A stretch of 64,000 nucleotides of DNA from a virus. The translations under genes and the position numbers were made by a program. Below are positions 1 to 59,875 of the stretch, in pieces. The first letter of the stretch is position 1; every line of letters begins with the position of its first letter. The notes under the pieces were generated by a model. It did no database searches and was not told the origin of the DNA. It was given only the letters and a program-made list of their open reading frames with translations. The stretch lies in the IMG/VR virus record IMGVR_UViG_3300032516_005094; one strand, 5' to 3'.

Positions 1-183
1 AATCTCCGTGACACTCCTATCACCTCTTTGCCCGCAGGGCTTAAGGTCGGTGGGAGGTTAGATCTCCGACGCACTAAGATCACCTCTTTGCCCGACGACT
101 TAAACGTAGAAGATAAGATCTACGTCGATGACCCCGCTAAAATTCAGTGCTCTGACGAGATAAGAAAGAAGCTCACCACATGA
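1..183 (+). CDS. 3' end of a leucine-rich-repeat protein (partial, runs off the window; not in the ORF track)
   Basis: Frame +1 reads NLRDTPITSLPAGLKVGGRL-DLRRTKITSLPDDLNVEDKI-YVDDPAKIQCSDEIRKKLTT*: two 20-aa LRR units plus a cap. The stop overlaps the next ATG (ATGA at 180-183). Confidence 0.85.
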   Translation, partial: NLRDTPITSLPAGLKVGGRLDLRRTKITSLPDDLNVEDKIYVDDPAKIQCSDEIRKKLTT

Positions 184-833
184 TCAACTTCTTTTCCCAA
201 GTAAAAAATAAATACTCTCTCGTCACCGCTGACTTCAAAACAACCCCTGCTTATGAGATTTTATATCACGGCTCAAGAGATCCGAGTTTAACTAAAGTTA
301 ATGACTATTCAAGCCATGGATTTTTTGACGCTATCTTTGCGGCTAAGGACTATGATGATGCACGTTCTCACGGAAAATATGTGTACGAAATACGACTAAA
401 AAAAGATGAAATACTAGAAGATATTCCTGAAACGGATCAAGTCTTATCTATAATAAAAGAAGAAACAAAGTTAAAAAATCGTAAAAAGGACACGGAATAT
501 AGTCGGGATTTGGATCTTTTATATTCAGTTATTGGTTTAGAAAAAAGCAGCGGTGATATTAGTCGATGGGTTGACTTTGACGACTACATAAAAGCACCAA
601 AAGATGCTGACAACTTTGAATTACTTTATCACAAAAATAAAATAACTAAACAAATTTTAGATAATATTAGTAATCTACTTGGTGAAGAAGATCCGATAAT
701 GCTTTGGCATGAAGCCCAGCGTATCCGAGGTGTTATTGCTAAAAAACTTGGTTACAAAGCAGTATCCATACAAGACGAACATGGTGTCAGCTACATTATT
801 TTGCCCTCGGTATTGTTAACACTCCTTGATTGA
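180..833 (+). CDS. Leader-tagged protein with an ADP-ribosyltransferase-like fold
   Basis: N-terminal leader MINFFSQVKNKYSLVTAD, then YHGS...GFFDAIFA...HGKYVY and C-terminal LGYKAVSIQDEHGVSYIIL, resembling phage ART-like domains. Confidence 0.5.
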   Translation: MINFFSQVKNKYSLVTADFKTTPAYEILYHGSRDPSLTKVNDYSSHGFFDAIFAAKDYDDARSHGKYVYEIRLKKDEILEDIPETDQVLSIIKEETKLKNRKKDTEYSRDLDLLYSVIGLEKSSGDISRWVDFDDYIKAPKDADNFELLYHKNKITKQILDNISNLLGEEDPIMLWHEAQRIRGVIAKKLGYKAVSIQDEHGVSYIILPSVLLTLLD

Positions 834-917
834 GATGATATTTAACTAGCAGAAAGAAGATCAGAAAATGAATGATCCTTCTTACCTGCCCTAGAATACT
901 GGTCTTAGCATAACCAC

Positions 918-1736
918 TTAACTTCCCCAATCAATTTCCGCATATTCAGGATCATTAATAATTTCAGTTACTTGGTTGATATTCTGTGTTTTTGTGTTTT
1001 CTATCCGTTGTTTAGCCATTTCAAAATACTCTGGCGCAATCTCGATGCCTACAAATTTCCTGCCTAGCTCGATTGCCGCTACGCCTGTCGTGCCGCTGCC
1101 CGTGAATGGATCGAGAACGGTGTCTCCTTCGTTTGACCAGCTAAGAATGTGGTCTTTGGCAAGCTGGAGAGGGAAGGTAGCTGGGTGTCCATTCTGATTG
1201 TGACCTATTACGAATTCCCAAATATTAGGTTTAGTCTTATCAATCTTAACTCCTCTAGGCGAGTGCCTGTCCCTTTGCGACCCATCCGCTTCAAACCACT
1301 GTGAGCCTCCCATCACTTGCTTGGATGGTATTTTTATGGGGTTAAAAGTTTTTGGTCTACCACTTGATAATATAAACATATATTCGAATTGTTGCTCGTA
1401 TCTATTGTGGGTTAGTGGTACATAATTTCGTTTACTGTAAATCATCGTATCATGTAAATTTAATCCCAATTCCTTAAAATATAGGGCTTGCTTAAAGCTT
1501 GTTCCTGTCTCGCTACCTTTAACCGTAGCATCCCCAACGACCCACACAATAACCCCACCAACCTTGATCACTCTGCATAACTCGCCCGCAATTTTCTCGA
1601 ATTCAAAAGAATAACCTTTATACTGGCGCAGATTGTCGTAAGGTGGGCTGGTCACTACCAGATCGATACTAGCATCTGGTATTTCTTTTAATTTTTCTGC
1701 ACAATCACCTAAAAGCAAAGTAACAGTATCCAGCAT
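918..1736 (-). CDS. DNA methyltransferase, N4-C/N6-A (beta class)
   Basis: Catalytic motif DLVVTSPPY precedes HPATFP and the SAM-binding VLDPFTGSGTTG...GIEI. Confidence 0.95.
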   Translation of the reverse strand: MLDTVTLLLGDCAEKLKEIPDASIDLVVTSPPYDNLRQYKGYSFEFEKIAGELCRVIKVGGVIVWVVGDATVKGSETGTSFKQALYFKELGLNLHDTMIYSKRNYVPLTHNRYEQQFEYMFILSSGRPKTFNPIKIPSKQVMGGSQWFEADGSQRDRHSPRGVKIDKTKPNIWEFVIGHNQNGHPATFPLQLAKDHILSWSNEGDTVLDPFTGSGTTGVAAIELGRKFVGIEIAPEYFEMAKQRIENTKTQNINQVTEIINDPEYAEIDWGS

Positions 1737-1780
1737 AAGTTAACTCCAAGATTCTAGTTTTAATCTATGGAGTTAACTTA
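1736..1780 (-). promoter_or_regulatory. Hairpin covering the methyltransferase RBS and start, with TAGATTAA between the arms
   Basis: Perfect 13-bp arms TAAGTTAACTCCA (1736-1748) and TGGAGTTAACTTA (1768-1780), plus 5 inner bp. The 3' arm on the minus strand contains GGAG and the A of ATG. Confidence 0.7.
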
Positions 1781-1797
1781 ACGATGTTTTACCGTTT

Positions 1798-2553
1798 TCA
1801 ACGGTATGAGAACATCTGTTTGGAATACTTGTTGTGGTAGGCAATGTATAAATAAAGATGCAGAAATAACCGATCAAGCCGCTTGGTTGTAACCCACGTT
1901 TTCCTGCGTAATCTCGATAGGTCGTGCCTTAATAAAGCACAAGTATGGTTGATACCGAATAGACTATCAAACCTACCGTCAGGATCTTTTCTTCCTGCTG
2001 GAATCTGCTTGATGTCAGCTTGCGGCATAGCCGCCTTAATGATTTTGGGATAGCAAGCAAGGGCATCTGACGCTACGGTGATCCTATCCTTGGCACAACG
2101 AGCTACTGTAGCCATAACCGACCTTCTAGCATCATCTCTGGTGTCATCACGTTCAATGCCTTTTAACCAAGCTAGGTCAGCCAAATGACCTTTGGCTTTC
2201 ATTGTTGCTATGCCAACGTCTATTATTTCCCCTGTTTTTGGTCTTACCGCCAACGAGATAGCTACTGGTTGTAACTTACTAACTTCAAAGGTTTCCATTT
2301 CATCAAACTGGACATAGGACGTTTTTAATTCACCATTATCAATGCGATCATTGTGTATTTTTAAAGCCTTAGATCCTAAGAATATCAGCTTATTGGCTAC
2401 GGTTTGTTGATGGCATTTTAATATCTTGGCAAGCCTACGGAGCGTCATACCAGAGGAGTATAGCTTGAAGATTTCTTCGTTTAAATAAGGCTTTTTCTGG
2501 TTTAAGGTGTCTCTGAATGTATGAGATGAAAATTTAGTACCGCAGGTTTTTCA
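1798..2553 (-). pseudogene. IS1-like transposase, N-terminally disrupted
   Basis: HTH (MTLRRLAKILKCHQQTV) then VQFDEMETF DDE-type motif. The frame stays open 34 codons upstream of the ATG (KTCGTKFSSHTF...KKPYLN) and hits an in-frame TGA at 2553-2551 where the first Cys of a CxxC is expected. No terminal inverted repeats found. Confidence 0.6.
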
Positions 2554-4077: not shown

Positions 4078-4131
4078 AAGATCTCCCAGGAATAATTGTG
4101 AAAATACTCCTGTTTAATCTAATTAAGAAAA

Positions 4132-10562: not shown

Positions 10563-10596
10563 TAGTAGTTCCTATCATTCACCGAGGCTATTTAAT

Positions 10597-12096
10597 CTAA
10601 AAATAAATATGACCAGAATTATATCTCGAAACCCCGTCCGAATATGTAGCTTTCAGGGGAGCTAAATTTAAAAATATTGGTTTAAGAGAAAACCCACCTG
10701 CCAACCAGCGATCTTTACCGTAAGCATCTTCAGCACCCAATATATAATAACTCAAAGAATTTACTACTGATCCATCATACTGCCAAGACTGCATAACAAC
10801 ATGGGAATTAGGTGATCCTTCTATAGCAACAATTATGCGATCAATAGGTTTATCCGATTTTAAAAGTTTAGGTCGAGCTAAGAAAAGCGTATTACTAGGG
10901 ACATGGAATATTTGTTTTTCTTGAGGCTCAAACTGTATTGAAATAACGCACTCTGCTTGCGCGTAAAAAGGTATAACCCAGCTATGTTGTTTGTCGGCAT
11001 TCCATTTAGGAACTAGTAAGTCACTTGACATTATGAAACGACCATCAACATCTAACTCTGCTTGAAATGTCCCATTTTTACGATACTGAAAAAAACCTTG
11101 TATCCGCTGCCACAGTAAAAATGTATCAGCACTTATAGAACGCTCTAACATTTGATGGTTAGGTGCTACCACCTGCCAATCATTACCGTTTAATTGATTG
11201 CCAAAACTATCATAAGTTTTAAGCCCTAAAACCGTCTTGACTTTTTTTTGATATAATAAACCACCATAAAATGCATCGACTAAACAAGGTCCAATATCAT
11301 TTGGTACAGATATATCGCCGTCAGGGTAATTTAACCTTTTAAATAAAGGTTGGGCTTTTAAAAAAGAGATTAAACCGACACTTGGATTAAAAGATATAAG
11401 TGTACTTTGATTAGATAATTCGATCTGATACTGATATAAGATATCTGGTTCTGTACCACTACCCACTCTCGTAGTTAAAAGTGTCGCTGTTTTAACAGGA
11501 TATTCACTAAAGCTATCTAAAATATCAGGGGTAGGCGTACATAAGATAATATCTCCTGGCACCACCTCATAATAAGATTCCATGAGTAAATATTTACGAG
11601 TAAACGGTGAAGCAGATACTCCGAAAAATTTCATCGGAGTACCTATAAGAGAAACGTAGATATTATCTGTAGTGATATAGTCTTGTAGTAGAGGGTTTCT
11701 AACATCTAAACTAGTAGTGCTTACTAAATCATTTATGATGTTTAACTCACCTACACGCTCCGAAGTACCTATTCTAATAAGACACTCTAAATCATACCAC
11801 TTAGGTCTATCAGAAAGTGTAAGACGATAAGTATCTTTTTGAGCATTACTTGTTAAAAGGAATTTATTGTCAGGATTTACCGCTGTAAAATTAAAGCCAT
11901 AAGTTTTACCAAATCTTAAAGAACCTTGAAGTAATTGAGGATCAATAAAACGCGGACGCGAACGCACCTGCATCTTTAAGTTAGAATAGGTGTTAAGCGT
12001 ACCGGCTACAACATTTTCGATGTCTCTTAAGCGACCGATGGTAGACCTCACAAAATATGAGACACTAAATCTTAACCATAGTATATCAGAATACAC
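10597..12096 (-). CDS. Probable virion structural protein (499 aa)
   Basis: Long ORF (GTG start) heading the structural operon; no recognisable enzyme motif. Confidence 0.5.
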   Translation of the reverse strand: MYSDILWLRFSVSYFVRSTIGRLRDIENVVAGTLNTYSNLKMQVRSRPRFIDPQLLQGSLRFGKTYGFNFTAVNPDNKFLLTSNAQKDTYRLTLSDRPKWYDLECLIRIGTSERVGELNIINDLVSTTSLDVRNPLLQDYITTDNIYVSLIGTPMKFFGVSASPFTRKYLLMESYYEVVPGDIILCTPTPDILDSFSEYPVKTATLLTTRVGSGTEPDILYQYQIELSNQSTLISFNPSVGLISFLKAQPLFKRLNYPDGDISVPNDIGPCLVDAFYGGLLYQKKVKTVLGLKTYDSFGNQLNGNDWQVVAPNHQMLERSISADTFLLWQRIQGFFQYRKNGTFQAELDVDGRFIMSSDLLVPKWNADKQHSWVIPFYAQAECVISIQFEPQEKQIFHVPSNTLFLARPKLLKSDKPIDRIIVAIEGSPNSHVVMQSWQYDGSVVNSLSYYILGAEDAYGKDRWLAGGFSLKPIFLNLAPLKATYSDGVSRYNSGHIYF

Positions 12097-12241: not shown

Positions 12242-12586
12242 ATGAAATTTTTACATAAAGTTACAAGTCAATATGTTTTAGCCAAACCAGAAGCATCCGA
12301 AAAGATCTATTGGGGAAAGATATATCTTGATTATGATGTGAACATCTTGAAAAAGCACTTAGATGACATCATGACCGGCAAAGCCACAGAGCAATGGTAT
12401 TTTTCGGCTGCTTCAAAACTTGAAAAAGCTCTTGCTGGAGGCAAAGTTATTGAATTTTACCTAGATTCACCGACTGCCTTCGGCGGTATTCTTTATGCAA
12501 AAATTGAGGATAAAGTTATTCAAATTTCTAAAAAGAAACTTCGCATTAACGATGCTAAATTTTTATTAGATAGAATCCATCGCTGA
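12242..12586 (+). CDS. Leader-tagged hypothetical protein
   Basis: Starts MKFLHKVTSQYVLA. The first 24 nt are identical to the start of 31879-32397. Confidence 0.75.
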   Translation: MKFLHKVTSQYVLAKPEASEKIYWGKIYLDYDVNILKKHLDDIMTGKATEQWYFSAASKLEKALAGGKVIEFYLDSPTAFGGILYAKIEDKVIQISKKKLRINDAKFLLDRIHR

Positions 12587-12614: not shown

Positions 12615-12875
12615 ATGATGAAATTTTTAAGTAAAATAATTGCACTACCAATTTCGACTGATCTTAAAGATCAATTAGATCCGAACAGCTTAGAAGTCGT
12701 CGAAGCGGAATTAAAAAGATTACAGTCTGAAGTGGCAGGTAAACTGTCGAGGCTGGAAAGCGTTTTAAAAAACGAACTTACCAAATCAGGCAGCTTAAAT
12801 AAGCTAGAATTATTTAAGAAAAACATACGGCTAGGTTTAGCTAAATGGCTTTATATGACCAGTATTAAAAAATAA
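12615..12875 (+). CDS. Leader-tagged hypothetical protein
   Basis: Starts (M)MKFLSKIIA. Confidence 0.65.
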   Translation: MMKFLSKIIALPISTDLKDQLDPNSLEVVEAELKRLQSEVAGKLSRLESVLKNELTKSGSLNKLELFKKNIRLGLAKWLYMTSIKK

Positions 12876-13226: not shown

Positions 13227-14108
13227 ATGTTTTTAAAAAAAGTATCTCAAAAATATAAAATATTAGCAGAAGATAAAAATCCTATAGAGAGAAGTCTGAC
13301 TTTATCTCTAACTCTTAGAGAGGCGGCTATTGCACTAGGTCACAAAGATTGGTTGTCGGTTAATGACTATTTGGATGGGGATTCTCACGATGATGTATAT
13401 CATGGGGGTATATCCGATGTTCAAGATGTTAGCGTGCCTGGTATGGCAGATGTCGAAAAAATATTCCCAAGTGAAGTAGCTAGTGCTCTTGAGGATGCAG
13501 AGAGGGAAGCCTATGCTTCTGCTCTAGGATCTGCGCGTAGAGATGCTTTAGTCGAGGGCTTTGAGAAGATACACGTTACAGGTGAGTATCAAAGTAGCGA
13601 CGGTGACATGATTTCGGCTGGTGGTGCCGGAGTTGAGTCTGCAACGTTAGGGGATGAAAAAATCGAACTCGTGATTAAAAATCCCGAACACCTGATAAAT
13701 GATATTGTAAACGGTGTCGGAAGGTGGGCACCACCTTTTGATCCTTACGAAAAAGCAAGTGATGAAGAAATAAAAAAACAACTGATAAATCATGCTGATG
13801 ATTATTTTGACGTATACGGCAGAAGAAAGCCAGATGTTCCTGATAGAATTTCTCCAGATAATGTAGACGAGGAACATTTTGCTTCAACAGTAGCTGAGTT
13901 ATGCGAGAATCTAAGCTTAGAGGAAATTGTAGACAATGTATTAGATGCTTTAGATAGTGGAAGGCTAGATTCTCAAAAAGAAGTTATTGATCTGGCAGCT
14001 AAATACTCAGGTAGTCCGCGTGATCAAATTAAAAAAAGTGTCTTAGATCATTTGAATGACAAATCTAAAAAATTTAGTGAAGCATCAGCAAAAGGGCTTA
14101 AAGTATAA
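13227..14108 (+). CDS. Leader-tagged acidic protein
   Basis: Starts MFLKKVSQKYKILAE; AGGAG RBS. Confidence 0.8.
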   Translation: MFLKKVSQKYKILAEDKNPIERSLTLSLTLREAAIALGHKDWLSVNDYLDGDSHDDVYHGGISDVQDVSVPGMADVEKIFPSEVASALEDAEREAYASALGSARRDALVEGFEKIHVTGEYQSSDGDMISAGGAGVESATLGDEKIELVIKNPEHLINDIVNGVGRWAPPFDPYEKASDEEIKKQLINHADDYFDVYGRRKPDVPDRISPDNVDEEHFASTVAELCENLSLEEIVDNVLDALDSGRLDSQKEVIDLAAKYSGSPRDQIKKSVLDHLNDKSKKFSEASAKGLKV

Positions 14109-14396: not shown

Positions 14397-14834
14397 CTAC
14401 CCTACTTTATTGAATAAACGAGACGCGGTGCTGTTCATTTCAGCGTGAGCTATAAAATCAGACTTTTTTGATTTTTTATTTGCAAGTATAGCCTCTCCGT
14501 ATTCGATAGCCTTTAGTCCAGCCTCAATTGCGGATTTATAACGAGGGTCGTCCGAGAATTTTTCTATTGCATATTTTTGACTTTGGACGAGGCGTTTTGT
14601 ACGTTCAATCAAAGCACTCAGAGGCTTTTTCATATCTGGGTGATCGGGTTTTGTGGGCTGCTGCTTGTTTGGTTTAAGCCAGTTTTGATATGCTAGTTGA
14701 GCTTGCTCGATTTCATTAGCCGACAAAAGTCCGATGCTCTTATTCAAAACATCATCACAAAAATCTTCAAAAGACATTTTAGCTGCACAAATCTTTGTGG
14801 TTGCCGCTGAAATATAGGATTGTAAAAATTTCAT
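14397..14834 (-). CDS. Leader-tagged hypothetical protein
   Basis: Starts MKFLQSYISA; GAGG RBS. Confidence 0.7.
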   Translation of the reverse strand: MKFLQSYISAATTKICAAKMSFEDFCDDVLNKSIGLLSANEIEQAQLAYQNWLKPNKQQPTKPDHPDMKKPLSALIERTKRLVQSQKYAIEKFSDDPRYKSAIEAGLKAIEYGEAILANKKSKKSDFIAHAEMNSTASRLFNKVG

Positions 14835-14932
14835 AATTTACCTCAGTAAAAGTTACACAATAAATCTTAGATTAACTAAAATAACTGGGGTTTAAAGCTG
14901 CTGTCTATTATTTTGAACAAAAAAGGGCAATT

Positions 14933-19864: not shown

Positions 19865-20293
19865 TTAATTGATTTTTTCTAAATCGATGACTAGTAAAGC
19901 TGGAATACTTTTCAGTCCCAATTTAGCTAGTGCTACCCAGCGGTGGGCACCTTCTAAAATATACAGTCCCTCATCATCGAGCACCACGATAAGTGGATCT
20001 ATATACTTGTTTTCTTTTATGTCAGCCGCTAGTTTTTCACTACGTTTCCAATCGTCGGCTGCATAAAACGCATGTTTTACATTAGCAAGTTCAGACAGGG
20101 GAATCTCTCTTGTACCTTTAAGTATCTCATAGTCGTTGAGACTTGACCGTATTGAACTGACGTTAGGTATGTCATCGGTAACACGTATATCACCGTCTAA
20201 TTTTTTAATTATAGGATATTTTTTGTCTAAATCTTTAAAATTTAAACCACTAATTATTTTGTATTTACTTACAATTAATTTTTTGTAACTCAT
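19865..20293 (-). CDS. Leader-tagged ParB/sulfiredoxin-like domain protein
   Basis: Leader MSYKKLIVSKYKIIS; DPLIVV...YILEGAHRWVALAKLGLKSIPALLV. Confidence 0.75.
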   Translation of the reverse strand: MSYKKLIVSKYKIISGLNFKDLDKKYPIIKKLDGDIRVTDDIPNVSSIRSSLNDYEILKGTREIPLSELANVKHAFYAADDWKRSEKLAADIKENKYIDPLIVVLDDEGLYILEGAHRWVALAKLGLKSIPALLVIDLEKIN

Positions 20294-21872: not shown

Positions 21873-21915
21873 TGCCGTTGCATTAAGATTTATTATCTTT
21901 AAGTGAAGGTAATCA

Positions 21916-25925: not shown

Positions 25926-26039
25926 AGCTCCTCTAAATAAGTCTCATCATCTTCACAGACTAGATCTTTTACCAATTTTTCAATCTCTAAATCCATAAAT
26001 TACCTTAGATTAAATTTATTAAATATTTTAGGGGGCTTT

Positions 26040-27479
26040 ATGAGGTTTATTGTTTTTTTATGTGCCTTATTATTATCTACTAATTCTTTTGCTTCAGAAT
26101 ATATAATTAAATACAAAAATCGTAGTTTTTTAAATTATAACCTTAAAGGTGAGCATTCTTTAGCAAACCTAGCCTTAGTTGATTTAACTGATAAAGAGTT
26201 AGATTCGGTTAAATCGGATAGCAACATAGAGTACATTGTCCCTAATTTCAAGTTACATTCTTTACTTGTCCCAACTGATGATTTGAAGCCGCAATGGTCT
26301 TTAAGCAAGATCAAAGCACAGGAGGCTTGGTCACTTGCGGGCAATAAGGGATCTAGAGAAGTACTGATGTCTATCATTGACACAGGTATTGACTACAATC
26401 ACTCAAGTCTACAAGGCAATATAGCTGCTGGTGGGTTTGATTTTCATGACAATGATGAAGATCCGATGGACGAGATTGGTGCCAACCCAGGTCATGGAAC
26501 CCACTGTGCAGGTATACTTGGTGCTAATGGCGATCATATAAGCGGTATGATGCAGACTACCAGCATTTTACCTATCAGGTTTTTGGGAGCTGATGGATCG
26601 GGTGATTTATTAGCTGGTATTAAATCGATAGATTACGCCATTGAGAAAAAAGTTAAAGTCATATCGGCAAGCTGGGGTGCTAACACAAGCGAAGAATCAG
26701 CAAAGCCTTTAGTTGAGGCGATAAAAAGAGCCGATGATGCGGGTATTGTTTTTGTGTCTGCTGCATCTAACGAAGGAGCAGACAACGATGTAACTGATGT
26801 ATATCCTGCAAATGCTGGCTTGCCTAATACTATCACTGTTGCTGCATCGGATGATTCTGATGGTAAACCTAGTTGGTCTAATTACGGTCGAAAAAAAGTA
26901 CACATAGCTGCGCCTGGAGAAGCTATCATCTCTAGTTTGCCTGATAATACATACGGTGAACTGTCAGGTACTTCAATGGCAACACCTCTCGTTGCTGGTT
27001 TAGTAGGCTTTCTACTGTCGCAGGATGAAACTCTTACCGGAGCAGAAATACGAGCAGTGTTACAAAAAACAGGAGATCAAATAGATATTATTAACGCTTG
27101 TAACTGTAGAATAAACGCTGTGGCAGCAACGAAAGCAGTTTTGAATAAAGATGAATGGCTAGTACCCTCGGCAGCAAGCTTAAACAAAAATGAAACACTA
27201 CAATTAAAATTAAAGAACGCTAAAAATAAACCAGTATTTAGTGTCTCAGACAGTAGCCTAGCAACAATTACAGACGATGGTTTATTGACGGCTGTGGGTC
27301 TAGGTAATGTTGTAGTGACGGCAAAGGATGGAGAAAAAGTTATTGATTCTTTACCAATATATGTAGGGGTAGATCTTCAGTGTCCGTTTGTTGCTCCTGT
27401 ATGCAGTATAATTTGTAAAGTTAATCCGAGTAAACCTTGGTGTGAGATTAAGAAATATAATTTCATGGAGGACTTATGA
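26040..27479 (+). CDS. Secreted subtilisin-family (S8) serine protease with Ig-like and Cys-rich C-terminal domains
   Basis: Signal peptide; catalytic motifs IIDTG, GHGTHCAG, AASNEG and GTSMATP. Confidence 0.95.
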   Translation: MRFIVFLCALLLSTNSFASEYIIKYKNRSFLNYNLKGEHSLANLALVDLTDKELDSVKSDSNIEYIVPNFKLHSLLVPTDDLKPQWSLSKIKAQEAWSLAGNKGSREVLMSIIDTGIDYNHSSLQGNIAAGGFDFHDNDEDPMDEIGANPGHGTHCAGILGANGDHISGMMQTTSILPIRFLGADGSGDLLAGIKSIDYAIEKKVKVISASWGANTSEESAKPLVEAIKRADDAGIVFVSAASNEGADNDVTDVYPANAGLPNTITVAASDDSDGKPSWSNYGRKKVHIAAPGEAIISSLPDNTYGELSGTSMATPLVAGLVGFLLSQDETLTGAEIRAVLQKTGDQIDIINACNCRINAVAATKAVLNKDEWLVPSAASLNKNETLQLKLKNAKNKPVFSVSDSSLATITDDGLLTAVGLGNVVVTAKDGEKVIDSLPIYVGVDLQCPFVAPVCSIICKVNPSKPWCEIKKYNFMEDL

Positions 27480-28542: not shown

Positions 28543-28601
28543 CTACAAAAAACCCTGAGCTACTAGCTTGGGTTAAAAAGGTTACAAAGTAAGGAAAAAC
28601 T

Positions 28602-28667
28602 ATGTTTAAGGATAGGGTTCAGGCGAAATATATCATAAGTTCCAACCTCCCTAATCAGAAAGGGTAG
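28602..28667 (+). pseudogene. Leader-only ORF (21 aa), probably truncated
   Basis: MFKDRVQAKYIISSNLPNQKG* after an AAGGA RBS; the frame stays open for 30 more codons after the TAG. Confidence 0.45.
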
Positions 28668-28855
28668 GACGTTCACAATCAAACATATGCTCCTTATAAG
28701 GGTAAAGCTGCGCCTGTGGAACCTGTTACAACTAATAAAAAAATTGTGCTTCTAGATTAAGTTTGATGAATTACTTTAAAAGTACAGTTCTTACAAAATA
28801 TTTAGTGTCGCAAAAGATGAAGACTATCCATGACCCGTCTAAAATTCAGAACGGT

Positions 28856-28935
28856 ATCCACGTCGATGACCCCGATAAAATCCAGTGCTCAGACGAGCTA
28901 AGAGAGAAGCTCAGATCATGATCAACTTCTTTTCT
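28856..28935 (+). repeat. Short copy C of the LRR-tail/leader cassette
   Basis: IHVDDPDKIQCSDELREKLRS* overlapping ATG-ATC-AAC-TTC-TTT-TCT; similar to about 118-197. Confidence 0.85.
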
Positions 28936-29076
28936 TATTTGTTTGAGTCACTAGAAAAATTCTATTCTGGTTTTCTAAAGGATGCTGTACCGCTGTGGCT
29001 GATTGCTGTTTTGGGGCTTTGGTTACTTGATACCCCCAAGAGAAAGAAATGTGTGAAAAATGAGCGAAGAATTTGA
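28918..29076 (+). CDS. Small membrane protein whose first six codons come from the cassette
   Basis: MINFFS, then unrelated YLFESL...VPLWLIAVLGLWLL. Confidence 0.5.
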   Translation: MINFFSYLFESLEKFYSGFLKDAVPLWLIAVLGLWLLDTPKRKKCVKNERRI

Positions 29077-29088
29077 TTTTCTAAACAT

Positions 29089-29335
29089 GGAGATTAGATC
29101 TCGACGGCACTAAGATCACCTCGTTGCCCGCAGGCTCACGGTCCCGTGGGTCTTTAAATCTCAGATACACTAAGATCACCTCTTTGCCCGACGACTTAAA
29201 CGTAAAAAATAGGATCTACGTCAATGACCCCGCTAAAATTCAGTGCTCAGACGAGCTAAGAAAGATGCTCACCACATGATCAACTTCTTCTCCCAAGTAA
29301 AAAATAAATACTCTCTGGTCACGGCTGATTTCAAA
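29089..29335 (+). repeat. Copy B of the LRR-tail/leader cassette
   Basis: 29169-29335 vs 73-239: 11 mismatches in 167 nt by manual alignment. The LRR fragment has no start codon. Confidence 0.95.
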
Positions 29336-32397: not shown

Positions 32398-32732
32398 ATT
32401 GTCTCCAACAAATTAATAGTGAATACTAAATCTAGTAATGTCCACGGAAAGTCTCTCTTTTGCGTTTGCGGGTACTTTAGGCTTGGCTTTTAGCTTTGGT
32501 AAATTTTTGAATACGATCTAACTCAGGACTGGGACGCTGCTAACTGGGGTATTTTTAGGCTTTATAAAGAAATACACAACAAGCCCAATTTAACCATCGC
32601 GGAATTCTATAATATCAAGACAAAAGAACAAGATGAAAAAATAGATGAACTTTTAGCTCAACTGAGAACTAAAGGTCCGATTAAAGTTTATGGGCAAGAG
32701 GATATTTACAAACTTTCGGACGTGGAATAATT

Positions 32733-33528: not shown

Positions 33529-33951
33529 TTAACCTGTAGAACCAAAACCGCCTGTTCTTTTGCCATCAGTCAAAAACTTGGTTGGTCGAAAAGCAAGACC
33601 GAAAACAAGTTGTGCTATTCGATCTCCTTTTTTTATCTCAAATAATTTCCAGCCATGATTAATCAATATTACTTTGATAGTATCATGGTAGTCTAAATCA
33701 ATAGTTCCTGGCGTATTAAGAACCGTAATATAATGTTTTGCAGCAAGACCTGATCTTGGTCTTATCTGGGCATCTATAATTATATTACTGCCAAAATCTT
33801 TTTGTAATTGAATGAGATCATCTTGATTAAAAAGATCTTGTAGATATATGCCCGTATCTACAATAGTTCGTTCTCCAGGCGCGATATCCAAATCTTGATT
33901 TGCGGGCAGATCCAAGCCGGTCGCTAAAGATGTTTGATATTTTAGTTCCAA
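33529..33951 (-). CDS. dut: dUTPase (trimeric)
   Basis: GLDL, RPRSGLA, GTIDLDY, GDRIAQL and RTGGFGSTG motifs; TTG start. Confidence 0.95.
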   Translation of the reverse strand: MELKYQTSLATGLDLPANQDLDIAPGERTIVDTGIYLQDLFNQDDLIQLQKDFGSNIIIDAQIRPRSGLAAKHYITVLNTPGTIDLDYHDTIKVILINHGWKLFEIKKGDRIAQLVFGLAFRPTKFLTDGKRTGGFGSTG

Positions 33952-34136
33952 AGTACTTGTACTTCTTCTTCAGCCCAGTCTTGCATTTTCTTTTTTAGTT
34001 TGTCAGCACGGGATGTATCTAATTTTTTTCCTGTTTTTTTCTTATATACTTCGAGTATAGCGTTCATAGCTGCCTCGGTAGCTTCATTCAACCAAGGCAC
34101 GTAATCTTCGGCTGTTATTTTTTTCAAAAAGCGCAT
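33942..34136 (-). CDS. Leader-tagged small protein
   Basis: Starts MRFLKKITAE; GGAG RBS. Confidence 0.65.
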   Translation of the reverse strand: MRFLKKITAEDYVPWLNEATEAAMNAILEVYKKKTGKKLDTSRADKLKKKMQDWAEEEVQVLWN

Positions 34137-34193
34137 TTGATCTCCTAGAAAAATCCGGTAAAGTTAATCTTATTGAACTTTATTGGGGTACTT

Positions 34194-35620: not shown

Positions 35621-35623
35621 ACC

Positions 35624-35947
35624 ATGAAAGCATTGTCACCAGCAGCAGACAGAGCCTATCGCCTTTGGAAGGAAGCCAAACAAAAAAACCCAGAAGAAAC
35701 CACTGAATCAATACTTAAAAGACTGAAATTAACTGCTTCTACTTTGCACAGAGGTAGAGTTTATTACGAAAAAAATAATAAATCAACTAAGCTTAAGCCT
35801 AAAGTAATAGCTGTGCCGCCAAATTTAGGCTTACAACCAAGCATTAGTGTCGTAGCCGGTCCGAACGATCAATCGATGCTTATAGTAGGTAATACGCAAT
35901 CTGTAGCAGAGATTGCGTCCACGATTCTGAAATCTTGGATACCTTAG
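35624..35947 (+). CDS. HTH-like protein
   Basis: Helical N-terminus (ESILKRLKLTASTLHRGR) followed by a Pro-rich linker. Confidence 0.4.
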   Translation: MKALSPAADRAYRLWKEAKQKNPEETTESILKRLKLTASTLHRGRVYYEKNNKSTKLKPKVIAVPPNLGLQPSISVVAGPNDQSMLIVGNTQSVAEIASTILKSWIP

Positions 35948-36228
35948 CTACCAAAGCTGATCGTTTGCTCTGGGTTTTTAGCGTATTTAGCTAAAACCAC
36001 TTTGATCTTGCGTGGGCTAGCAGTGACATGGCTGACGGTTAATTGATAACCAGTAGCCGTAGCCGCTAAGTCCCAGCTAATCGTGTCTTTTTCATTTTTC
36101 GTCAAGATATCCACAAAATCTACCAAAACTGCATTCGGGGTAAAGTCACAATCTACAGTGTAAGAATCTGTGCCTTTAACAAGTTTAAAATCAGTTACAC
36201 GTTTTTTTAAAAAATTCAAACTAGCCAT
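35944..36228 (-). CDS. Small probable structural protein
   Basis: GGAG RBS before MASLNF; TAGATTAA 39 nt upstream. Confidence 0.5.
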   Translation of the reverse strand: MASLNFLKKRVTDFKLVKGTDSYTVDCDFTPNAVLVDFVDILTKNEKDTISWDLAATATGYQLTVSHVTASPRKIKVVLAKYAKNPEQTISFGS

Positions 36229-36336
36229 CGTAATTCTCCTATTAAATAAAGGCATACCCTTTATAATTAATCTAGTAAGAAAGGTTTAATTATATTATAT
36301 ATTCGTATTCTACAGAATTAGTTCTTAGGAGTTACG

Positions 36337-50700: not shown

Positions 50701-51573
50701 CCTAGGATTACAAGCGATAGTATAACCGGCATATAGTGCTTGCGTCCATGTGACACCACCATCGCCGGATATTAAGGTAGTACCCATACCACTACACGCA
50801 AATATTTTAGTACCATCGGCACTACAAGTTATATCTCTCCAAGGTTGAGACGTTGGCAAAACAGCCTGTGTCCATGTGGCACCACCATCAGTCGATAGCC
50901 AAATATTTTGGTTTTCTATAGCCGCTAGTATAGCGCCGTCAGCACTACAAGCTATACCATACCACGTAACTTGTGGAACGAGTGCTTCTTGCCAAGTCAA
51001 ACCGCTATCAGTCGATAGCCAAATACTACCACTCCCAAGCGCACCGGCAGCTATTTTAGTACCATCGGCACTACAGCACACACTAAAAAAACCAGATTCG
51101 CCTGGAATAGGATATTCTGTCCAAATAGCACCGCTGTTATCAGAAATAACGATAGAATTTGAATTGTAAGCAACTGCCACTATTTTAGATCTATCGCTAC
51201 TACAAGCAATATCTTTATAGCCGTGTGAAGGTGACGAAGTAACAGTCCAAGGACCTCCACCATCACTAATGTAAACTTTTTGACTTTGTATATTAACTGC
51301 AGCTAATTTGGTGCCGTCACTGCTAGCGCAGATTCCGTACCATACACCAGGAAAAGCTTGTGTAGAAAAAATTGTTTTATCCGTCGAGACATAAATATTG
51401 CCACCATAGGAGCCTAAAGCAATAAGTCCTGTCGTAGGTCCTGTGGTAACTAAATTGGGTAAGAAATTTACCGCAGCATCTAGAGCATGTGCAGAACTCG
51501 TTAAAACTACAGTATCGTCTATACCAGCAGAAGGTGGATTAGTGACCGATAATGTATTTATTTTTTGATTCAT
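44713..51573 (-). CDS. Very large tail spike/fibre protein (2286 aa): Asp-box propeller plus beta-helix
   Basis: Six S.D.G.TW-type Asp boxes near the N-terminus, then DDTAFAQAI...IPGTY pectate-lyase-like helix. Confidence 0.75.
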   Translation of the reverse strand: MNQKINTLSVTNPPSAGIDDTVVLTSSAHALDAAVNFLPNLVTTGPTTGLIALGSYGGNIYVSTDKTIFSTQAFPGVWYGICASSDGTKLAAVNIQSQKVYISDGGGPWTVTSSPSHGYKDIACSSDRSKIVAVAYNSNSIVISDNSGAIWTEYPIPGESGFFSVCCSADGTKIAAGALGSGSIWLSTDSGLTWQEALVPQVTWYGIACSADGAILAAIENQNIWLSTDGGATWTQAVLPTSQPWRDITCSADGTKIFACSGMGTTLISGDGGVTWTQALYAGYTIACNPRGQVVVVADAPSQLAYVSSDAGNNWTQFTATALWLSSVVVGFTGLVININSHGLIDGQAVYFYTTTTLPAPLQAFTTYYVKYIDANNFGLSATYQGSAITLTDQGTGVHSLLKAFNVRLRDPWDNVLKTTNLTGLSSNQIAALNASDTPNSSNALITNSYLTNQLLGKKGFVTVGPAGSNADFESDDDTAFAQAINFILTRNANGGWIIVIPGTYNFTKTITVPSGICIEGVHPQTAIIVAGGNFSAFELTGSSSRLDKLQIQAPSATTKAVVKISGEKCIIEKCLITNFTYAGLQVAGYRNKVISCRIEDTASAASQGIILQSFQNNINWCSFVGSFNYGALKVEGNDCGCFNSYFDSTLVGYSYLILSDSVSNTRLVGNHFGSNDSLILSYDYGTTSVRYGNTPNTPNVNQNNFALPLANYTGQPTLSTSSATLSNNFTTNGADNLTDILSNLDLFLQRSFEERNFFLSSNDPTYDPTGVPTAGVGSWDGSNLSVPTFYIHSTLARAGRWVVNSASYALDAGQVLYVEINQTLDAADIVLTPMVAAYPLPLTASTDAWRLVLAVGLGGNQAIWLEGFRLLTGMTSFDIEGTLLPLARFIGVTDIKNPSAPFNGFAAGTAADLTTKLGAQSKLLENLYERTNLSLEPVTSDAEFSTDPVAGNYLDTTVGLPSRPTHIVQAFKLTYALVPTSGLYVFDSVSSSWSKVTGHPLVPDFTALSFVGVSIGILTTAGAIAAYNPYLNTWATYSPVIDEYTSILLPFASSRILGAFPLGGQADYALQTDNFTYFTTLNGYTVRYSLKNNTLNYVPRAYTQDVGDRGLLGPSLKDSAYNTLRDTKDLFETLDNGVSYTTGLPCSKGKLINFAGTYWYSQILDFSSFDLINFAYDEFSGAWLAVYTNNSYNFILGGGKDTSYLYSVQGDFDDFQTHYWVLNPIKQEVIALGAKTSTGAFTAQISSYNVDALTWTWTTQILGVSGTSQGCIAIYDTYSAGDLWVLVSNPARSNRPTVWKRNGTTGNWTSTTLTNSVSDVSDTLVPAAVANSFLYVATGATKLKGYAAVSPTAINFYVADNARSNRPTVFNYNRSSGSYTGVRLAEAAGAGVDVVVIHATANSADIFLGAFYHAPSRTNFFAVQRADNYTVFFAHHEVVANFAGWTNIKSNLNQFTIPSTKALITNKITGDNTDSLNSPYVFYLLCSQGFITITLGGSNSNFTSVISFSKLEYTSKLLGFSSTGTSIYIPQVGSLRGGEPSVSVGSWAKTDTANIQAAGIGLDPGLGDGIFWSEAGSYVKHIKRTSNGIKEGSLWSGVNRGGYLWIADSSRRTRQTELTPNHVTLRGNYDVTNLGAITGDYDFATNGTQVAFVYANSGIGNVLSFLLWDIETETVLAYERGGFAPLNPAGISACGSTPRILYNTVTATWDIVVQDNSREGGQVAFYRRTEAGDWSLETIGAVSGDKTLAEMVANAGLNPCKPILVNNGDIVLCTSDISSNLLIFYRVHSLNQWATSGQITGGGFNKPVLAVNSLGQYWVFGGYDGANARIAKSNSYVSGFSVYSSDISDVYNRVFNPRYYISNDAIVVASPLTQAGTAVDNQEMGVFRFPATATDVANIFAAKGRLIGFLGEEEIDYGDHSFTSDGKLLYSAERSGRTDRHYSIRISRNGFKTLGDSALGSGRLLTLGNRCYREEYASASRPLIVEYDYDYNIISYRDNLPIAEREPGTFLTLRYPYAADASPSNLFSDANLPSGSLNAVDAREFPLICGNTRIQGGPGAGLLYFGAMVSISASYLPATNLLRLEAMKALTIKGTWKITAPNSGTAYTITGPIVYLLDASATGSHLVLQFPNTGTLTLDSVANPLTYWSNLDYTQNSYALVLGEVRERYFTLYSKTKLTYGNIENTVLANPVKYYTRNKEFLKEFFITPLTIDSLAVQEVGALDGIQKQNFSVLGHLLLVQGLPPNGTGYHYFVVFNIATADSMLSGMKFQHVAGKFENIVVFNS

Positions 51574-52526
51574 TTTTTAAGCTCTACAAAAAAATGATGG
51601 AAAAGATCATCAATTGTTTTTTTGACATCTTCCATATTAAAGTCTCTTAAATCTTTTCTATACAGGAATTTTCTATCCTTTAAATCCGGATTAGAATACT
51701 GAAGGTATACCTCAATTTCTGCGGCTGGATCAGTCGAGTGCTTATATTGTACCAGTTTTTCTCTATTAGATAATTGCTGCTTTGGGGTTGCTATGATTTT
51801 TAAACTTAAATAGTTCTTTTCATATTCCTCTTTAACATCTTCTGGCTTATCACTTATAATACTTATGCCTGCCTTTATTATATTTTTTTTATCCCAAGAC
51901 TCAAATTTTTTAATCGGATTATCTGCTTTAACCTTACCAAACTTTGCACCTTGGTCTTTAATATAGTCGAATATTTCTATGACCTCTTTATAACCACTGC
52001 CAGTCGAGGGGATTAGCTTGGCTTTAATTTTGGTCGGATCTAAAACTAGCAGTTGTACTTCGTCTGAAAAGATTGAATCCGTATCGTCAAACACCGCGTC
52101 GTAACCTGCCTGCCTTAATAACTTATTGAAAAGACCAGACTTTCTCTCAAAGACCTGCTGTAAGCAACTCCAAGCGGCTTTAGCTGGTTTGTCGTGTTCT
52201 AGGAAGTAGTCGAGTTTATCGGGTGAGACTTTAAGTTTTTTGACTAAAGATCTTGCATCTTCCTCAGTTTTTATGTCTGATAGGTCTAAGACTTTAAGAG
52301 AATCAGGTACATCGACAGCAAATTTATATTTTTTCTTATGCCAGCTTCCTTTTGTACGGAAGTTTTCTGGGAATAAATAAATAGCGGCTGGATCACGATG
52401 CCAAGTCTTGGGATTTATTTTTAATTCGGGAAAGTCCGAGTAATGTACAAATCTACCGCGCCATTTTTGGTAATCTGCCAAAATGTATTTTGTTTTTACC
52501 TTAGCGTTGAACAAATAAAACCTCAT
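51570..52526 (-). CDS. Leader-tagged protein with an ADP-ribosyltransferase-like fold
   Basis: Leader MRFYLFNAKVKTKYILAD; FVHYS...INP...DPAAIYLFP and LRQAGYDAVFDD...EVQLLVLDP. Confidence 0.5.
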   Translation of the reverse strand: MRFYLFNAKVKTKYILADYQKWRGRFVHYSDFPELKINPKTWHRDPAAIYLFPENFRTKGSWHKKKYKFAVDVPDSLKVLDLSDIKTEEDARSLVKKLKVSPDKLDYFLEHDKPAKAAWSCLQQVFERKSGLFNKLLRQAGYDAVFDDTDSIFSDEVQLLVLDPTKIKAKLIPSTGSGYKEVIEIFDYIKDQGAKFGKVKADNPIKKFESWDKKNIIKAGISIISDKPEDVKEEYEKNYLSLKIIATPKQQLSNREKLVQYKHSTDPAAEIEVYLQYSNPDLKDRKFLYRKDLRDFNMEDVKKTIDDLFHHFFVELKK

Positions 52527-53390: not shown

Positions 53391-53417
53391 TAAATTTATT
53401 CCAAAATCTGCCGATAA
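53391..53417 (+). promoter_or_regulatory. sigma28-type promoter
   Basis: TAAA-N15-GCCGATAA, about 24 nt before the ATG at 53441. Confidence 0.75.
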
Positions 53418-53896: not shown

Positions 53897-54223
53897 TCAG
53901 GTCTTCCAGCTTCTGGTGCTTCCTCGTCCTACTACTGGTTGTTCGTTACGTTTTACTATTTTCCATCCCGTATTAGTTTGAATAAGTAGCCGCGTTTTAT
54001 CCCAAGAGTATACACCATGGGTATCATTAGGTGCCTCACCACCAAAAGTTGGAAGGTTTGACATATCCCTGTCGCTGAGAATCGGTTCGTCCCTCCGCGC
54101 ATCGCTCTGTATTTTTTCTAAAAGCTCCTCTAAAGATTTTACAGACTTTAATTTCTTCCGTGCGATTTCCTGTGCTCCCGATACGACACAGTATTTGGAT
54201 TCCAATTTTTGCAAAAAAGACAT
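53897..54223 (-). CDS. Leader-tagged small protein (LPTFGG...WD motif)
   Basis: Starts MSFLQKLESKYCVVS; DMSNLPTFGGEAPNDTHGVYSWD. Confidence 0.7.
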   Translation of the reverse strand: MSFLQKLESKYCVVSGAQEIARKKLKSVKSLEELLEKIQSDARRDEPILSDRDMSNLPTFGGEAPNDTHGVYSWDKTRLLIQTNTGWKIVKRNEQPVVGRGSTRSWKT

Positions 54224-54541: not shown

Positions 54542-55150
54542 TTAAGACTTGGACAGATACGCCTTCATAAACGCATTTGTCTGGTGGTTATTAGCCTCAT
54601 ACACTGAGGCAAAGGTGAAGCTGCGTCCTGCGTGTTTTCCGCGCATGATCTTTGAATATGCATTGTTTATCCGGTCGGGATGAAAAGTACCGTATGAAAC
54701 GGCTGTACCGTCTTTGTAAACGCCAAAGACTTCTTTATCTGTGCTGCCCTTCCAAACAAAGGCGGTCTGCTCATATTTTTTTGTAAGCTTCTCAAGTACG
54801 TCTTTTAGCTCACCTTCGCGGGCTAATGGTGCAGCGATAAATAACGAATCTTCTGCTGCACTATCCGGCACCTGATCTCCGGTTTCAGACCAATAACCTT
54901 TCAGCCAAAAATAACCAAAACCGGATTGCCTAATATCTTTGGCTAGTTGCAAATTTGCTTGCAGATTTTCTTCGCGGCTTTGCGTGCTTTTAAAGGCAGT
55001 TATAATACCGAAAGCATTATCTTTTTTCATATGTTGCCATATACGCGAAAGACTACTGCCGTCTACCTCAGTATATGCGGTTAAAAATTGCTGCTCTGAT
55101 ACAGAGGACGCAAGCTGGTATTTTTCTTGGATTTTATTTAAAAACTGCAT
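54542..55150 (-). CDS. Leader-tagged DUF3293-like protein
   Basis: Starts MQFLNKIQEKYQLA; SSLSRIWQH...FGIITAF...N.QL..DI...G.GY..LKGYW...EDSLFI. Confidence 0.6.
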   Translation of the reverse strand: MQFLNKIQEKYQLASSVSEQQFLTAYTEVDGSSLSRIWQHMKKDNAFGIITAFKSTQSREENLQANLQLAKDIRQSGFGYFWLKGYWSETGDQVPDSAAEDSLFIAAPLAREGELKDVLEKLTKKYEQTAFVWKGSTDKEVFGVYKDGTAVSYGTFHPDRINNAYSKIMRGKHAGRSFTFASVYEANNHQTNAFMKAYLSKS

Positions 55151-55380
55151 AGTTACCTCACAAATTAATCTATATATCTTATCGGTATTTTAGTAAAGAT
55201 CCTTTACAATTGTGTTAGGTGCTTATAAAAGCCCATTGCTAAAAAAAGATAGCAGGCAGGTCGTTGTTACCAACTACCTTTAATTACCATAATAATTACC
55301 ATAAATGTACAATTTTGTACATAGTTTGATATACCTCTTTCGGTTTTTTTAAAAAAAACTTTAGTTATATAAAATAATAT

Positions 55381-58380: not shown

Positions 58381-58740
58381 ATGGCTACGAAAACTATTAA
58401 TATCTGGGTTTATTTTGTCAACAATTATTTAGCGAGCTACGCTCGCAGAATACTTTATATCCCCGCCCTAAAGGATGATAAAATGGCTTTTGATGTGAAT
58501 TTGCTACTTAAATTAGCATGTGATGAAGACGCACCCTCCATTATTAGATTGGAGGCTAAAAAAAAATTACGTCATTATGGCTATAGCGAGATTCTAGATC
58601 AGCGAGTAGCCGAGCATATGATAGAGTTAAAAGCTAAAGTACGCCAAGAGTGCGTCGAAAAAGATCCATTAAATGGTGGTGATTTTTTTGATCAAACCAT
58701 AGAAATGATTCATCAAGAGCTGAAAAATATTAGAATTTAG
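58381..58740 (+). CDS. Hypothetical protein
   Basis: ORF only; start uncertain. Confidence 0.5.
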   Translation: MATKTINIWVYFVNNYLASYARRILYIPALKDDKMAFDVNLLLKLACDEDAPSIIRLEAKKKLRHYGYSEILDQRVAEHMIELKAKVRQECVEKDPLNGGDFFDQTIEMIHQELKNIRI

Positions 58741-58955
58741 ATATTATGCCCTATAATAAAAATACCACCCGAAAAAACCGCTTCAATAATAGACTTCAGA
58801 TACCAAATCAAAAACCCGCCCAGTATTGTTAATACAAAGACGCATAAAATCGCAGTAAAACCTAGCTTTTTCATACGACCTCTAATCTAAGAGGAAATAT
58901 TAAGGGATCGTATATAATCTACTTAAAAGGACGCAAAAGTAAAATACTTAGATGT

Positions 58956-58982
58956 TAAAGTTTTAGGTTAAATAGCCGATAA
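58956..58982 (+). promoter_or_regulatory. sigma28-type promoter (perfect consensus)
   Basis: TAAAGTTT-N11-GCCGATAA, followed by a GGAGG RBS and the ATG at 58996. Confidence 0.85.
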
Positions 58983-58995
58983 GTATCATAGGAGG

Positions 58996-59217
58996 ATGAT
59001 GCTCATGTCATATTTAAAAGCTAGGCTATGGATTTTTCTAGACAAAATATTTATTAAGGAGAAGTCCTATCAGATCATTTCGGATGGGCAGGATGTTAAT
59101 ATTATTGAGGTGAAAGCCCTGTTTCCTTGGCGATGCAGCGCCTTGGTACAGGAGTTGATGGCTACGCATCATAGCCAGCCTAGCCGCTTATACCTTAACG
59201 GCAACAGGCTTATGTGA
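58996..59217 (+). CDS. Hypothetical protein
   Basis: GGAGG RBS, sigma28 promoter. Confidence 0.65.
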   Translation: MMLMSYLKARLWIFLDKIFIKEKSYQIISDGQDVNIIEVKALFPWRCSALVQELMATHHSQPSRLYLNGNRLM

Positions 59218-59218
59218 A

Positions 59219-59875
59219 TTAACTAAGTATTATGTGCTTTTCTACTTGGAAATTTTGCCACAATTGTAAAGCATTAGGCTTAGTAGTTTTACCAGTTATT
59301 AGTTTATTTAATGCTGGAATAACTATTGTTTGCACCTTCGTTAAGTCCTCTTTTTTAAATCCTAAAATTGATACATGCGGACGTTTTGCAAATCCTTTAT
59401 CTTCCGGAGCTGTAAACTTGAATCTCCCCTTTAGATACTTTTTAAATTCTTCTTCTTTTTGTGGGGAATCTAAATCTAACACTAAATAGTTTAAACCGGA
59501 CGAAGGTGCCTCTAAAGTAGAAATTTTCAGCATTTTATAAGTGGGTATATGCGACTTAGCTATGCTTAATACTGATGCAAATTCCTCTATTTTCAATTTA
59601 TCAAACATCCCTATGGAAACGTGACACCAATCATTGCCTTTAGCATTTGGGTTTAAATTAAAACCTTGCTCCAACATTCTGTAGGCGCTGCCCGCGTGCC
59701 GTTCTTGTAATAGATCAAACGGAATATTTGCAGTCTTAAAAAGCCTTAGACTTGTTTGTAGTAAATTTTGAAAAAAATCAGGATCAAACTCCCATGCTAA
59801 TAAAGCCTTAGTGTAGACTTTGTCTGCAATCACCTGATATTTTTGATTTATTTTATTTAAGAAAGTCAAGGACAT
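59219..59875 (-). CDS. Leader-tagged 2H phosphodiesterase (Acb1/LigT-like)
   Basis: Leader MSLTFLNKINQKYQVIAD; two HxS motifs (WCHVSIG, RPHVSIL) with YLVLDLDS between them. Confidence 0.7.
   Translation of the reverse strand: MSLTFLNKINQKYQVIADKVYTKALLAWEFDPDFFQNLLQTSLRLFKTANIPFDLLQERHAGSAYRMLEQGFNLNPNAKGNDWCHVSIGMFDKLKIEEFASVLSIAKSHIPTYKMLKISTLEAPSSGLNYLVLDLDSPQKEEEFKKYLKGRFKFTAPEDKGFAKRPHVSILGFKKEDLTKVQTIVIPALNKLITGKTTKPNALQLWQNFQVEKHIILS

Follow-up and report, generated by a model that had tools for sequence, protein, structure and literature searches.

In phage T4, an N-terminal capsid-targeting sequence of 10 residues is sufficient for its function, with residues 4 and 7 serving targeting and residues 8 and 10 serving cleavage at L/I-x-E (PMC9026906, PMC3012670), and in phage P1 an N-terminal signal of at most 30 residues suffices to load DarB, of the Dar anti-restriction system, into the capsid (PMC9024508). 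Here, a recurrent leader peptide is described at the starts of unrelated open reading frames (ORFs) in IMG/VR record IMGVR_UViG_3300032516_005094, a 64,000-nucleotide stretch of an uncultured large phage (38% GC; hereafter the window), and in the genome around it. With the genome extended to ∼132 kb through overlapping metagenome contigs, of which ∼58 kb adjoins the window, the leader is found on ∼25 of ∼148 genes, about one in six. The leader consensus, its dedicated promoter-like box and the set of cargoes are new, and literature searches turned up no account of this leader, or of a comparable one spanning many genes, in huge phages.

The leader resembles the capsid-targeting sequences of T4 internal proteins IPI, IPII and IPIII and the propeptide of Alt as a short, portable N-terminal peptide on unrelated, fast-evolving small proteins, an ADP-ribosyltransferase (ART) and anti-restriction proteins among them, and in both cases the cargo genes are hypervariable between related phages. 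Its core, F-x-x-K-V-x-x-K-Y-x-hydrophobic within a long form of 13–17 residues, differs from the 10 residues ending in L/I-x-E in T4; it is carried by ∼25 genes as opposed to about four, and neither a gp21-type protease nor T4-type head genes were detected here, in searches that were weak. With P1 DarB it has in common an N-terminal loading signal on counter-defence proteins delivered with the DNA, as is proposed here, but the Dar proteins lack a common N-terminal consensus, whereas one consensus recurs here on dozens of genes. The huge phages phiKZ, 201phi2-1 and SPN3US package many proteins following proteolytic maturation (SPN3US has >50 head proteins), although the propeptides of their head and ejection proteins vary in length and share no leader, but only a short cleavage motif with a terminal Glu. 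Polyvalent proteins of phages and conjugative elements fuse many effector domains in one delivered protein; their repertoire overlaps with the cargoes described below (ART, ParB-like, NUDIX), whereas the domains here reside in separate small genes, each with its own tag and putative promoter. Extracellular contractile injection systems, the PVC and similar, load unrelated effectors into a tail-like particle through N-terminal signals of ∼50 residues without a clear consensus; two of the tagged genes here likewise seem to head tail-related operons, but the element has replication, ribonucleotide reductase and lysis genes, and a distant relative (G001, a 236-kb IMG/VR record of 47% GC with 57 of 148 proteins in common at 25–80% identity) has a head–tail connector match, which point to a true phage rather than a tailocin.

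In full, the leader core reads F-x-x-[KQR]-[VI]-x-x-K-Y-x-hydrophobic-x-[A/S]. Anchored on the tyrosine, which is residue 10–14 in all leaders but one, the leaders align without gaps (F at −8 in 21 of 23, V or I at −4 in 22, K at −1 in 19, Y itself in 22 and an aliphatic residue at +2 in 21), and a small residue, A or S, comes two to four positions after the aliphatic +2 residue. A short form, for example MKFLHKVTA, corresponds to the long form minus a five-residue K-Y segment; the first 24 nucleotides of the genes at 12242 and 32397 are identical, differing only by this segment. All 14 of the related starts listed in the initial annotation translate as written, and although two of them are remnants (those at 28602 and 29276; Table 1), the set proved larger than claimed: further copies begin at window positions 28766 (MNYFKSTVLTKYLVS) and, more weakly, 36228, about nine lie in the adjoining 58 kb, others occur in variant cassettes from other samples (L004, L009, L012 and L034), and G001 has at least 13. 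The leader is absent, as had been noted, from the large fibre-like proteins, tape measure, helicase, dUTPase and sugar enzymes.

Matches to the leader concentrate at protein starts, with eight of 11 six-frame matches to a long-form regular expression in the window falling at ORF starts. A hidden Markov model was built from nine window leaders; at ≥8 bits across the window and population variants, all distinct matches were N-terminal except one that was C-terminal. At ≥7 bits in held-out DNA, the model found five N-terminal matches and one other in the 58-kb extension (none in the reversed-sequence control), and 13 N-terminal matches and two others in the 236 kb of G001 (three in the control), both of the latter being leaders that lack a Met through frameshifts or alternative starts. 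In the scan of N-terminal against internal matches proposed in the initial annotation, those in held-out DNA were thus almost exclusively N-terminal, and coincidence can be excluded as the source of the motif.

Conservation within the leader is codon-periodic, with summed information of 9.6, 13.5 and 5.3 bits at codon positions 1, 2 and 3, respectively. The invariant residues use synonymous codons freely (F as TTT in 12 cases and TTC in nine; Y as TAT in 12 and TAC in 10), only the middle T of the codon is conserved at the aliphatic position, and the motif is retained despite the shift in GC content from the window to G001. Codon periodicity and survival of the GC shift together indicate that selection acts on the leader at the protein level, and not on an RNA or DNA element. 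A translation-initiation region, or a repressor site of the T4 RegA type, would agree with the AT-rich starts and the recurrence of ATGAAATTTTTA, but it is at odds with the codon periodicity, with the free use of synonymous codons and with the frequent conservative substitutions (I/V/L, K/R/Q and A/S), and nothing but a ribosome-binding site is common to the genes between the promoter-like box and the ATG; this explanation is considered highly improbable.

The conserved features are a stripe of F, V/I and Y at four-residue spacing together with an aliphatic pair, rather than amphipathicity or charge. The leader had been called amphipathic, a description that fails, as its helical hydrophobic moment is 0.278 compared with 0.258 for shuffles; net charge averages +2.1, with a range of −1 to +4. 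The accompanying statement that it has no hydrophobic core and is no Sec signal is upheld by a maximum nine-residue Kyte–Doolittle mean of ≤1.4, and the true Sec signals of the same genome (for example, at 26040 and 62849) look quite unlike it. Neither a twin-arginine motif nor a lipobox is present in the leaders; the GG, GA or GS cleavage motif of double-glycine leaders and of ribosomally synthesised and post-translationally modified peptides is missing, the boundary being A/S followed by E, D, G or S, and no C39 peptidase transporter or maturase was found in Pfam or PHROG scans. A microcompartment or encapsulin targeting peptide is likewise not indicated, with a hydrophobic moment not above that of shuffles and no shell family among the scanned proteins. 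Non-classical export out of the host cytoplasm, to which the N-terminal position, mostly basic character and terminal small residue of the tag could point, runs counter to the lack of a hydrophobic core and of any twin-arginine, lipobox or double-glycine motif, to the difference from the true Sec signals and to the cytoplasmic targets of the cargoes (S-adenosylmethionine (SAM), NAD-dependent modification, nucleotides and DNA), and is given very little credence.

The proteins behind the leader adopt unrelated folds, comprising ART, 2H phosphoesterase, SAM lyase, ParB_N, leucine-rich repeat (LRR) and, in G001, NUDIX domains. Four versions of the ART cargo are seen among its relatives: long-tagged, short-tagged (M-S-Y-x-Q-R-I-K-L-L-S-A), untagged (P0015) and fused to another N-terminal domain (P0005). 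Orthologues of the SAM-lyase-like and 2H proteins (38–57% identity) retain a tag that is more diverged than the cargo. In AlphaFold models, residues 1–21 of the ART protein have a predicted local distance difference test (pLDDT) score <50 and the fold begins at residue 25; the leader of the 2H protein is modelled as a short low-confidence helix (residues 3–12, pLDDT <50) outside the fold. The models are consistent with a modular tag detached from the cargo fold.

Several cargoes belong to families known for counter-defence. The product of 180–833 belongs to PF26151 (precomputed annotation) and matches the anti-CRISPR protein AcrIF11 (PDB accession: 6KYF) in Foldseek with an E-value of 4e-8. 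For the product of 59219–59875, in which both H-x-S motifs of the 2H family are invariant, 43 PDB matches were obtained at E ≤1e-3, led by Usb1, CPDase, LigT and the poxvirus cGAMP phosphodiesterase, and phage Acb1 ranks 48th with an E-value of 1.1e-3. The gene at 54542–55150 encodes an S-AdoMet_lyase domain with an additional weak match to DUF3293, and that at 19865–20293 a ParB_N domain. The cargoes first proposed stand in these four cases, with the DUF3293 assignment reduced to this weak match; the second ART, at 13227–14108, was not confirmed, with no match to the ART family of 180–833 (hhalign probability ∼1%). A NUDIX hydrolase is among the tagged cargoes of G001 (L068:5903–6451, equal to G001 177903–178451); it has a second match in the C-terminal region of phrog_15528, a portal-protein PHROG, and the NUDIX domain may be physically fused to the portal in some phages.

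Recombination breakpoints coincide with leaders, and this has a bearing on what the common start represents. In variant L009, foreign DNA is joined at window position 178, two nucleotides 5′ of the ATG at 180; the LRR and ART genes have 60 nucleotides in common and then diverge; and cassettes are replaced in L004, L012 and L033–L036. The common start might be chiefly a cassette for recombination, in which a conserved 5′ end of the gene and its promoter allow accessory genes to be swapped, the peptide itself having no targeting role, and the exactness of the L009 breakpoint, these replacements and the 24 identical nucleotides at 12242 and 32397 all favour it. Most leaders, however, differ in nucleotides yet keep the residue pattern, with third codon positions low in information; the copies at 180 and 29276 differ at four nucleotides, each of them a synonymous change, as the initial annotation stated; and the pattern persists in G001 at a different GC content. 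The internal proteins of T4 also recombine at their leaders, and recombination is therefore compatible with a targeting role. A cassette without such a role is considered improbable.

Most tagged genes stand as transcription units of their own (median upstream gap, ∼110 nucleotides), and many are preceded by a box, [AT]AGATT[AT][AT] (core TAGATTAA or TAAGATTAA), that is a candidate phage-specific promoter. The box lies ≤80 nucleotides upstream of 13 of 25 tagged genes compared with 17 of 124 other genes (Fisher p = 8e-5); the chance rate across the genome is ∼0.4 per kb on each strand, and boxes in the reverse orientation are not enriched. In G001, at least 10 of 19 tagged genes have an AGATT-type box 30–45 nucleotides upstream. 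The box also precedes untagged genes, none of them a replication gene; these include the genes for fibre-like proteins of 1673 and 684 amino acids, the tape measure, the secreted S8 protease, a methyltransferase and a lysis cluster (two membrane proteins, an S8 protease and an amidase); judged by the genes it accompanies, the box possibly marks late expression. Two tagged genes appear to open tail-related operons: the end of one (318 amino acids, 51570–52526) overlaps the start of the gene for a 2286-amino-acid fibre-like protein, and the other (116 amino acids) comes first in a block that is conserved in G001 and includes a protein resembling tube or tube-initiator proteins in language-model features, as a lead only.

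Because the box is common to tagged, tail and lysis genes, the peptide most likely loads proteins into the virus particle, a role that we regard as evenly poised between right and wrong. In such a mechanism, the tagged proteins would be synthesised alongside those of the tail, the fibres and lysis; the hydrophobic stripe of the tag (F, V/I and Y four residues apart, then two aliphatic residues and a small one) would bind a conserved component of the assembling virion; and the cargo enzymes, built into the particle, would enter the next host along with the DNA, counter-defence enzymes being presumably most useful on arrival. The destination may be the head or the tail, and the tag may be removed at the A/S boundary. 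A SAM lyase or anti-CRISPR ART that is made late would hardly help the incoming genome if it were not carried over to the next infection. It is tentatively proposed, at somewhat below even confidence, that a clade of huge phages loads at least two dozen enzymes into the virion by means of one 13–17-residue tag and a dedicated late-type promoter box, and so arrives with a pre-made counter-defence arsenal; that loading is coupled to cleavage of the tag is doubtful. What endures of the virion-packaging tag originally put forward is a protein-level, modular, N-terminal tag on unrelated folds that is kept in G001 and has its box in common with fibre, tape-measure and lysis genes, while the amphipathicity and the pair of ARTs have fallen away and the leaders do not follow the T4 cleavage rule.

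Several findings weigh against virion loading. Tagging of ∼25 genes far exceeds the handful of packaged proteins of T4; half of the tagged genes lack the box, and the designation of the box as late would follow solely from the company it keeps; and where tagged genes lead tail-related operons, their position suits a tail-linked role no less than one in the capsid. The residue after the A/S of the leader is acidic in 13 of 29 cases (E in seven and D in six), without a strict cleavage motif, and the residue two before the acidic position is seldom L or I across these 29 leaders, unlike the L/I-x-E motif of the T4 protease gp21. No major capsid, portal, terminase or prohead protease was recovered in the ∼132 kb of the lineage or the 236 kb of G001, so that no receptor or protease can be named. 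Family searches of G001 for S77, Gp23, Terminase_6N, Terminase_6C, TerL_ATPase, the HK97 capsid and S78 gave no match in an assembly ridden with frameshifts, and for S77 (PF03420) and Gp23 (PF07068) the control genomes were equally silent; G001 does match a baseplate wedge in addition to the connector.

The tag could alternatively be a docking or sorting signal acting at the protein level on a non-virion target, whether an intracellular phage assembly or compartment, a chaperone or activating partner, or a protease for which it would act as a timing degron. To this the same evidence for a peptide-level, modular and exposed tag applies, and no identified head component, the very large number of tagged genes and the leader-like motifs found internally at domain junctions (in a 214-amino-acid protein and in P0009) also speak for it. 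The box in common with fibre, tape-measure and lysis genes and the two tagged heads of tail operons point to particle assembly instead, no candidate compartment or adaptor gene was found, and the variation in net charge speaks against a cationic helix that binds membranes; such a non-virion role is thought rather unlikely.

Three S8 subtilases are encoded by the lineage, at window 26040–27479 (with a signal peptide), L038:1206–2219 and L053:19695–20555, the last adjoining the ribonucleotide reductase genes and a TnpB gene. The second, a cytoplasmic protein of 337 amino acids without a signal peptide, has an intact D-H-S triad; it is a conceivable leader peptidase, although it lies within the lysis cluster.

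If the tag loads virions, the N-terminal capsid-targeting principle of T4 and P1 reaches an unrelated, uncultured lineage of huge phages on a far larger scale, with about one gene in six involved; the injected effector proteome of such phages would be predictable from DNA sequence alone, some twenty proteins annotated without function would be flagged as candidate counter-defence or host-takeover factors, and a compact tag for packaging foreign proteins would be at hand. Should it serve another docking function, the tag would still define a large co-regulated gene class overlooked by existing annotation.

The source phage is present as contigs ≥∼99% identical to the window in many freshwater-sediment metagenomes. 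Besides tagged genes, the window encodes three fibre-like proteins (1673, 1866 and 2286 amino acids), a tape-measure-like protein, methyltransferases, a dUTPase, an SNF2 helicase, an HNH gene and a secreted S8 protease. The extension adds replication and repair genes (DnaB, a second SNF2 helicase, Mre11-like and SbcC-like proteins, a clamp-loader-like ATPase and RecA, for which the closest cultured matches are from jumbo phages at 25–29% identity), a sigma factor, the amidase lysis cluster, RmlA, RmlC, RmlD, a GH31 glycosidase, two further S8 proteases and tail-related genes. Genes typical of huge phages are also found at L049:9386–9586 and L053:14447–17737, encoding ribosomal protein S21, both class I ribonucleotide reductase subunits, a DHH phosphoesterase and a pentapeptide-repeat protein. 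An operon of c-type cytochrome, YceI and exported proteins (window 60288–64000 and onwards in L025) is phage-borne and not host flank, because in many samples the same contigs run on into the phage DnaB, SNF2 and RecA genes. The DnaB gene is interrupted in one population variant (L035:11933–14830) by an intein with a LAGLIDADG endonuclease, giving 965 instead of 494 amino acids. Recoding of TGA in G001 was rejected: TGA read-through more than doubles the long ORFs (L056–L068), yet the products are W-rich and homologues are split between adjacent frames, and the ORF breaks are therefore assembly frameshifts. In IMG/VR, a degenerate DNA pattern for the leader returned 10 stretches, nearly all by chance, and single-protein searches found no relatives; the ESM Atlas gave nothing usable for conserved proteins of 362 and 512 amino acids.

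Table 1. Leader-bearing genes, remnants and associated promoter-like boxes in the window (nucleotide positions; LRR, leucine-rich repeat)
Position	Strand	Feature	Leader	Remarks
1–183	+	LRR gene, 3′ end (464 amino acids)	MINFFSQVKNKYSLVTAD	N-terminus with leader outside window; intact copy L010:896–2290, also L014; LRR_4 (Pfam)
180–833	+	AcrIF11-like ADP-ribosyltransferase	long, codons 1–17	
12242–12586	+	tagged gene	long, MKFLHKVTSQYVLA	cargo without assigned family
12618–12875	+	tagged gene	short, MKFLSKIIA	G001 orthologue retains leader
13227–14108	+	tagged gene	long, MFLKKVSQKYKILA	ART reading of cargo not confirmed
14397–14834	−	tagged gene	short, MKFLQSYISA	box 14861–14868
19865–20293	−	ParB_N-domain cargo	long, MSYKKLIVSKYKIIS	
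28602–28667	+	leader-only remnant, 21 codons		
28766–28921	+	leader ORF joined to LRR-tail fragment	MNYFKSTVLTKYLVS	box 28753–28760; within decayed cassette array
29276–29446	+	truncated N-terminal copy of tagged LRR gene, 56 codons		
31879–32397	−	tagged gene	short, MKFLHKVTA	box 32427–32434
33942–34136	−	tagged gene	short, MRFLKKITA-E	box 34164–34171
35944–36228	−	weak additional member	MASLNFLKKRVTDFKLV	box 36267–36274
51570–52526	−	tagged gene, 318 amino acids		first in operon; G001 orthologue retains K-Y-x-x-A-S
53897–54223	−	tagged gene	long, MSFLQKLESKYCVVS	other tagged cassette in its place in variant L004
54542–55150	−	S-AdoMet lyase family cargo		box 55165–55172
59219–59875	−	2H phosphoesterase cargo		leader modelled outside fold

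Further examples of the box, as T(A)AGATT[AT]A, lie at window positions 1760–1767, 4114–4121, 10592–10599, 14868–14875, 21885–21892 and 26006–26013, among others; the distance is 12–65 nucleotides to the fibre-like, tape-measure, S8 protease, methyltransferase, lysis and tagged genes that follow. A second motif, TAAAG-N14–15-CCGATAA, is sigma-28-like and occurs in eight copies in 122 kb, mostly before small genes and on the strand opposite the main operons; four copies are in the window (53391–53417, 55179–55206, 58956–58982 and 59928–59954) and four in the genome extension. The lineage encodes its own sigma factor (L038:5584–6900).

Cassette turnover has left traces at several further sites. 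The region 28600–29450 holds a decayed array of LRR-tail and leader cassette fragments, with ORFs of 21, 51, 52, 51 and 56 codons, and is pseudogene debris from repeated leader-mediated recombination. Between the SNF2 and DnaB genes lies a hypervariable cassette site (L025:1569–2213 compared with L036:4674–5772 and L033:10401–10859); here, the 214-amino-acid protein mentioned above has a short N-terminal leader and, in mid-protein, a motif resembling the long leader (TFRVKAKYEIGSA), at which other variants are exactly split or truncated and one has an inserted segment. A variant lineage (L009:4830–10000, and L007) links the N-terminus of the 2286-amino-acid fibre-like gene (window 51441) to window 178 by 5.2 kb that encode a 1131-amino-acid SNF2 helicase and a further tagged ORF (MTNWLKKVKEKYEDI); the self-contained 57-kb element that this junction suggested was rejected, as other contigs carry the window into a far larger genome. 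Two population insertions, L012:1650–3270 (at window ∼1460) and L004:5880–8370, each carry a Zn-ribbon protein of 329–335 amino acids, without a Pfam match and possibly a transposase, beside a small leader-tagged ORF; the former interrupts a methyltransferase gene and the latter is accompanied by a PemK toxin–antitoxin pair.

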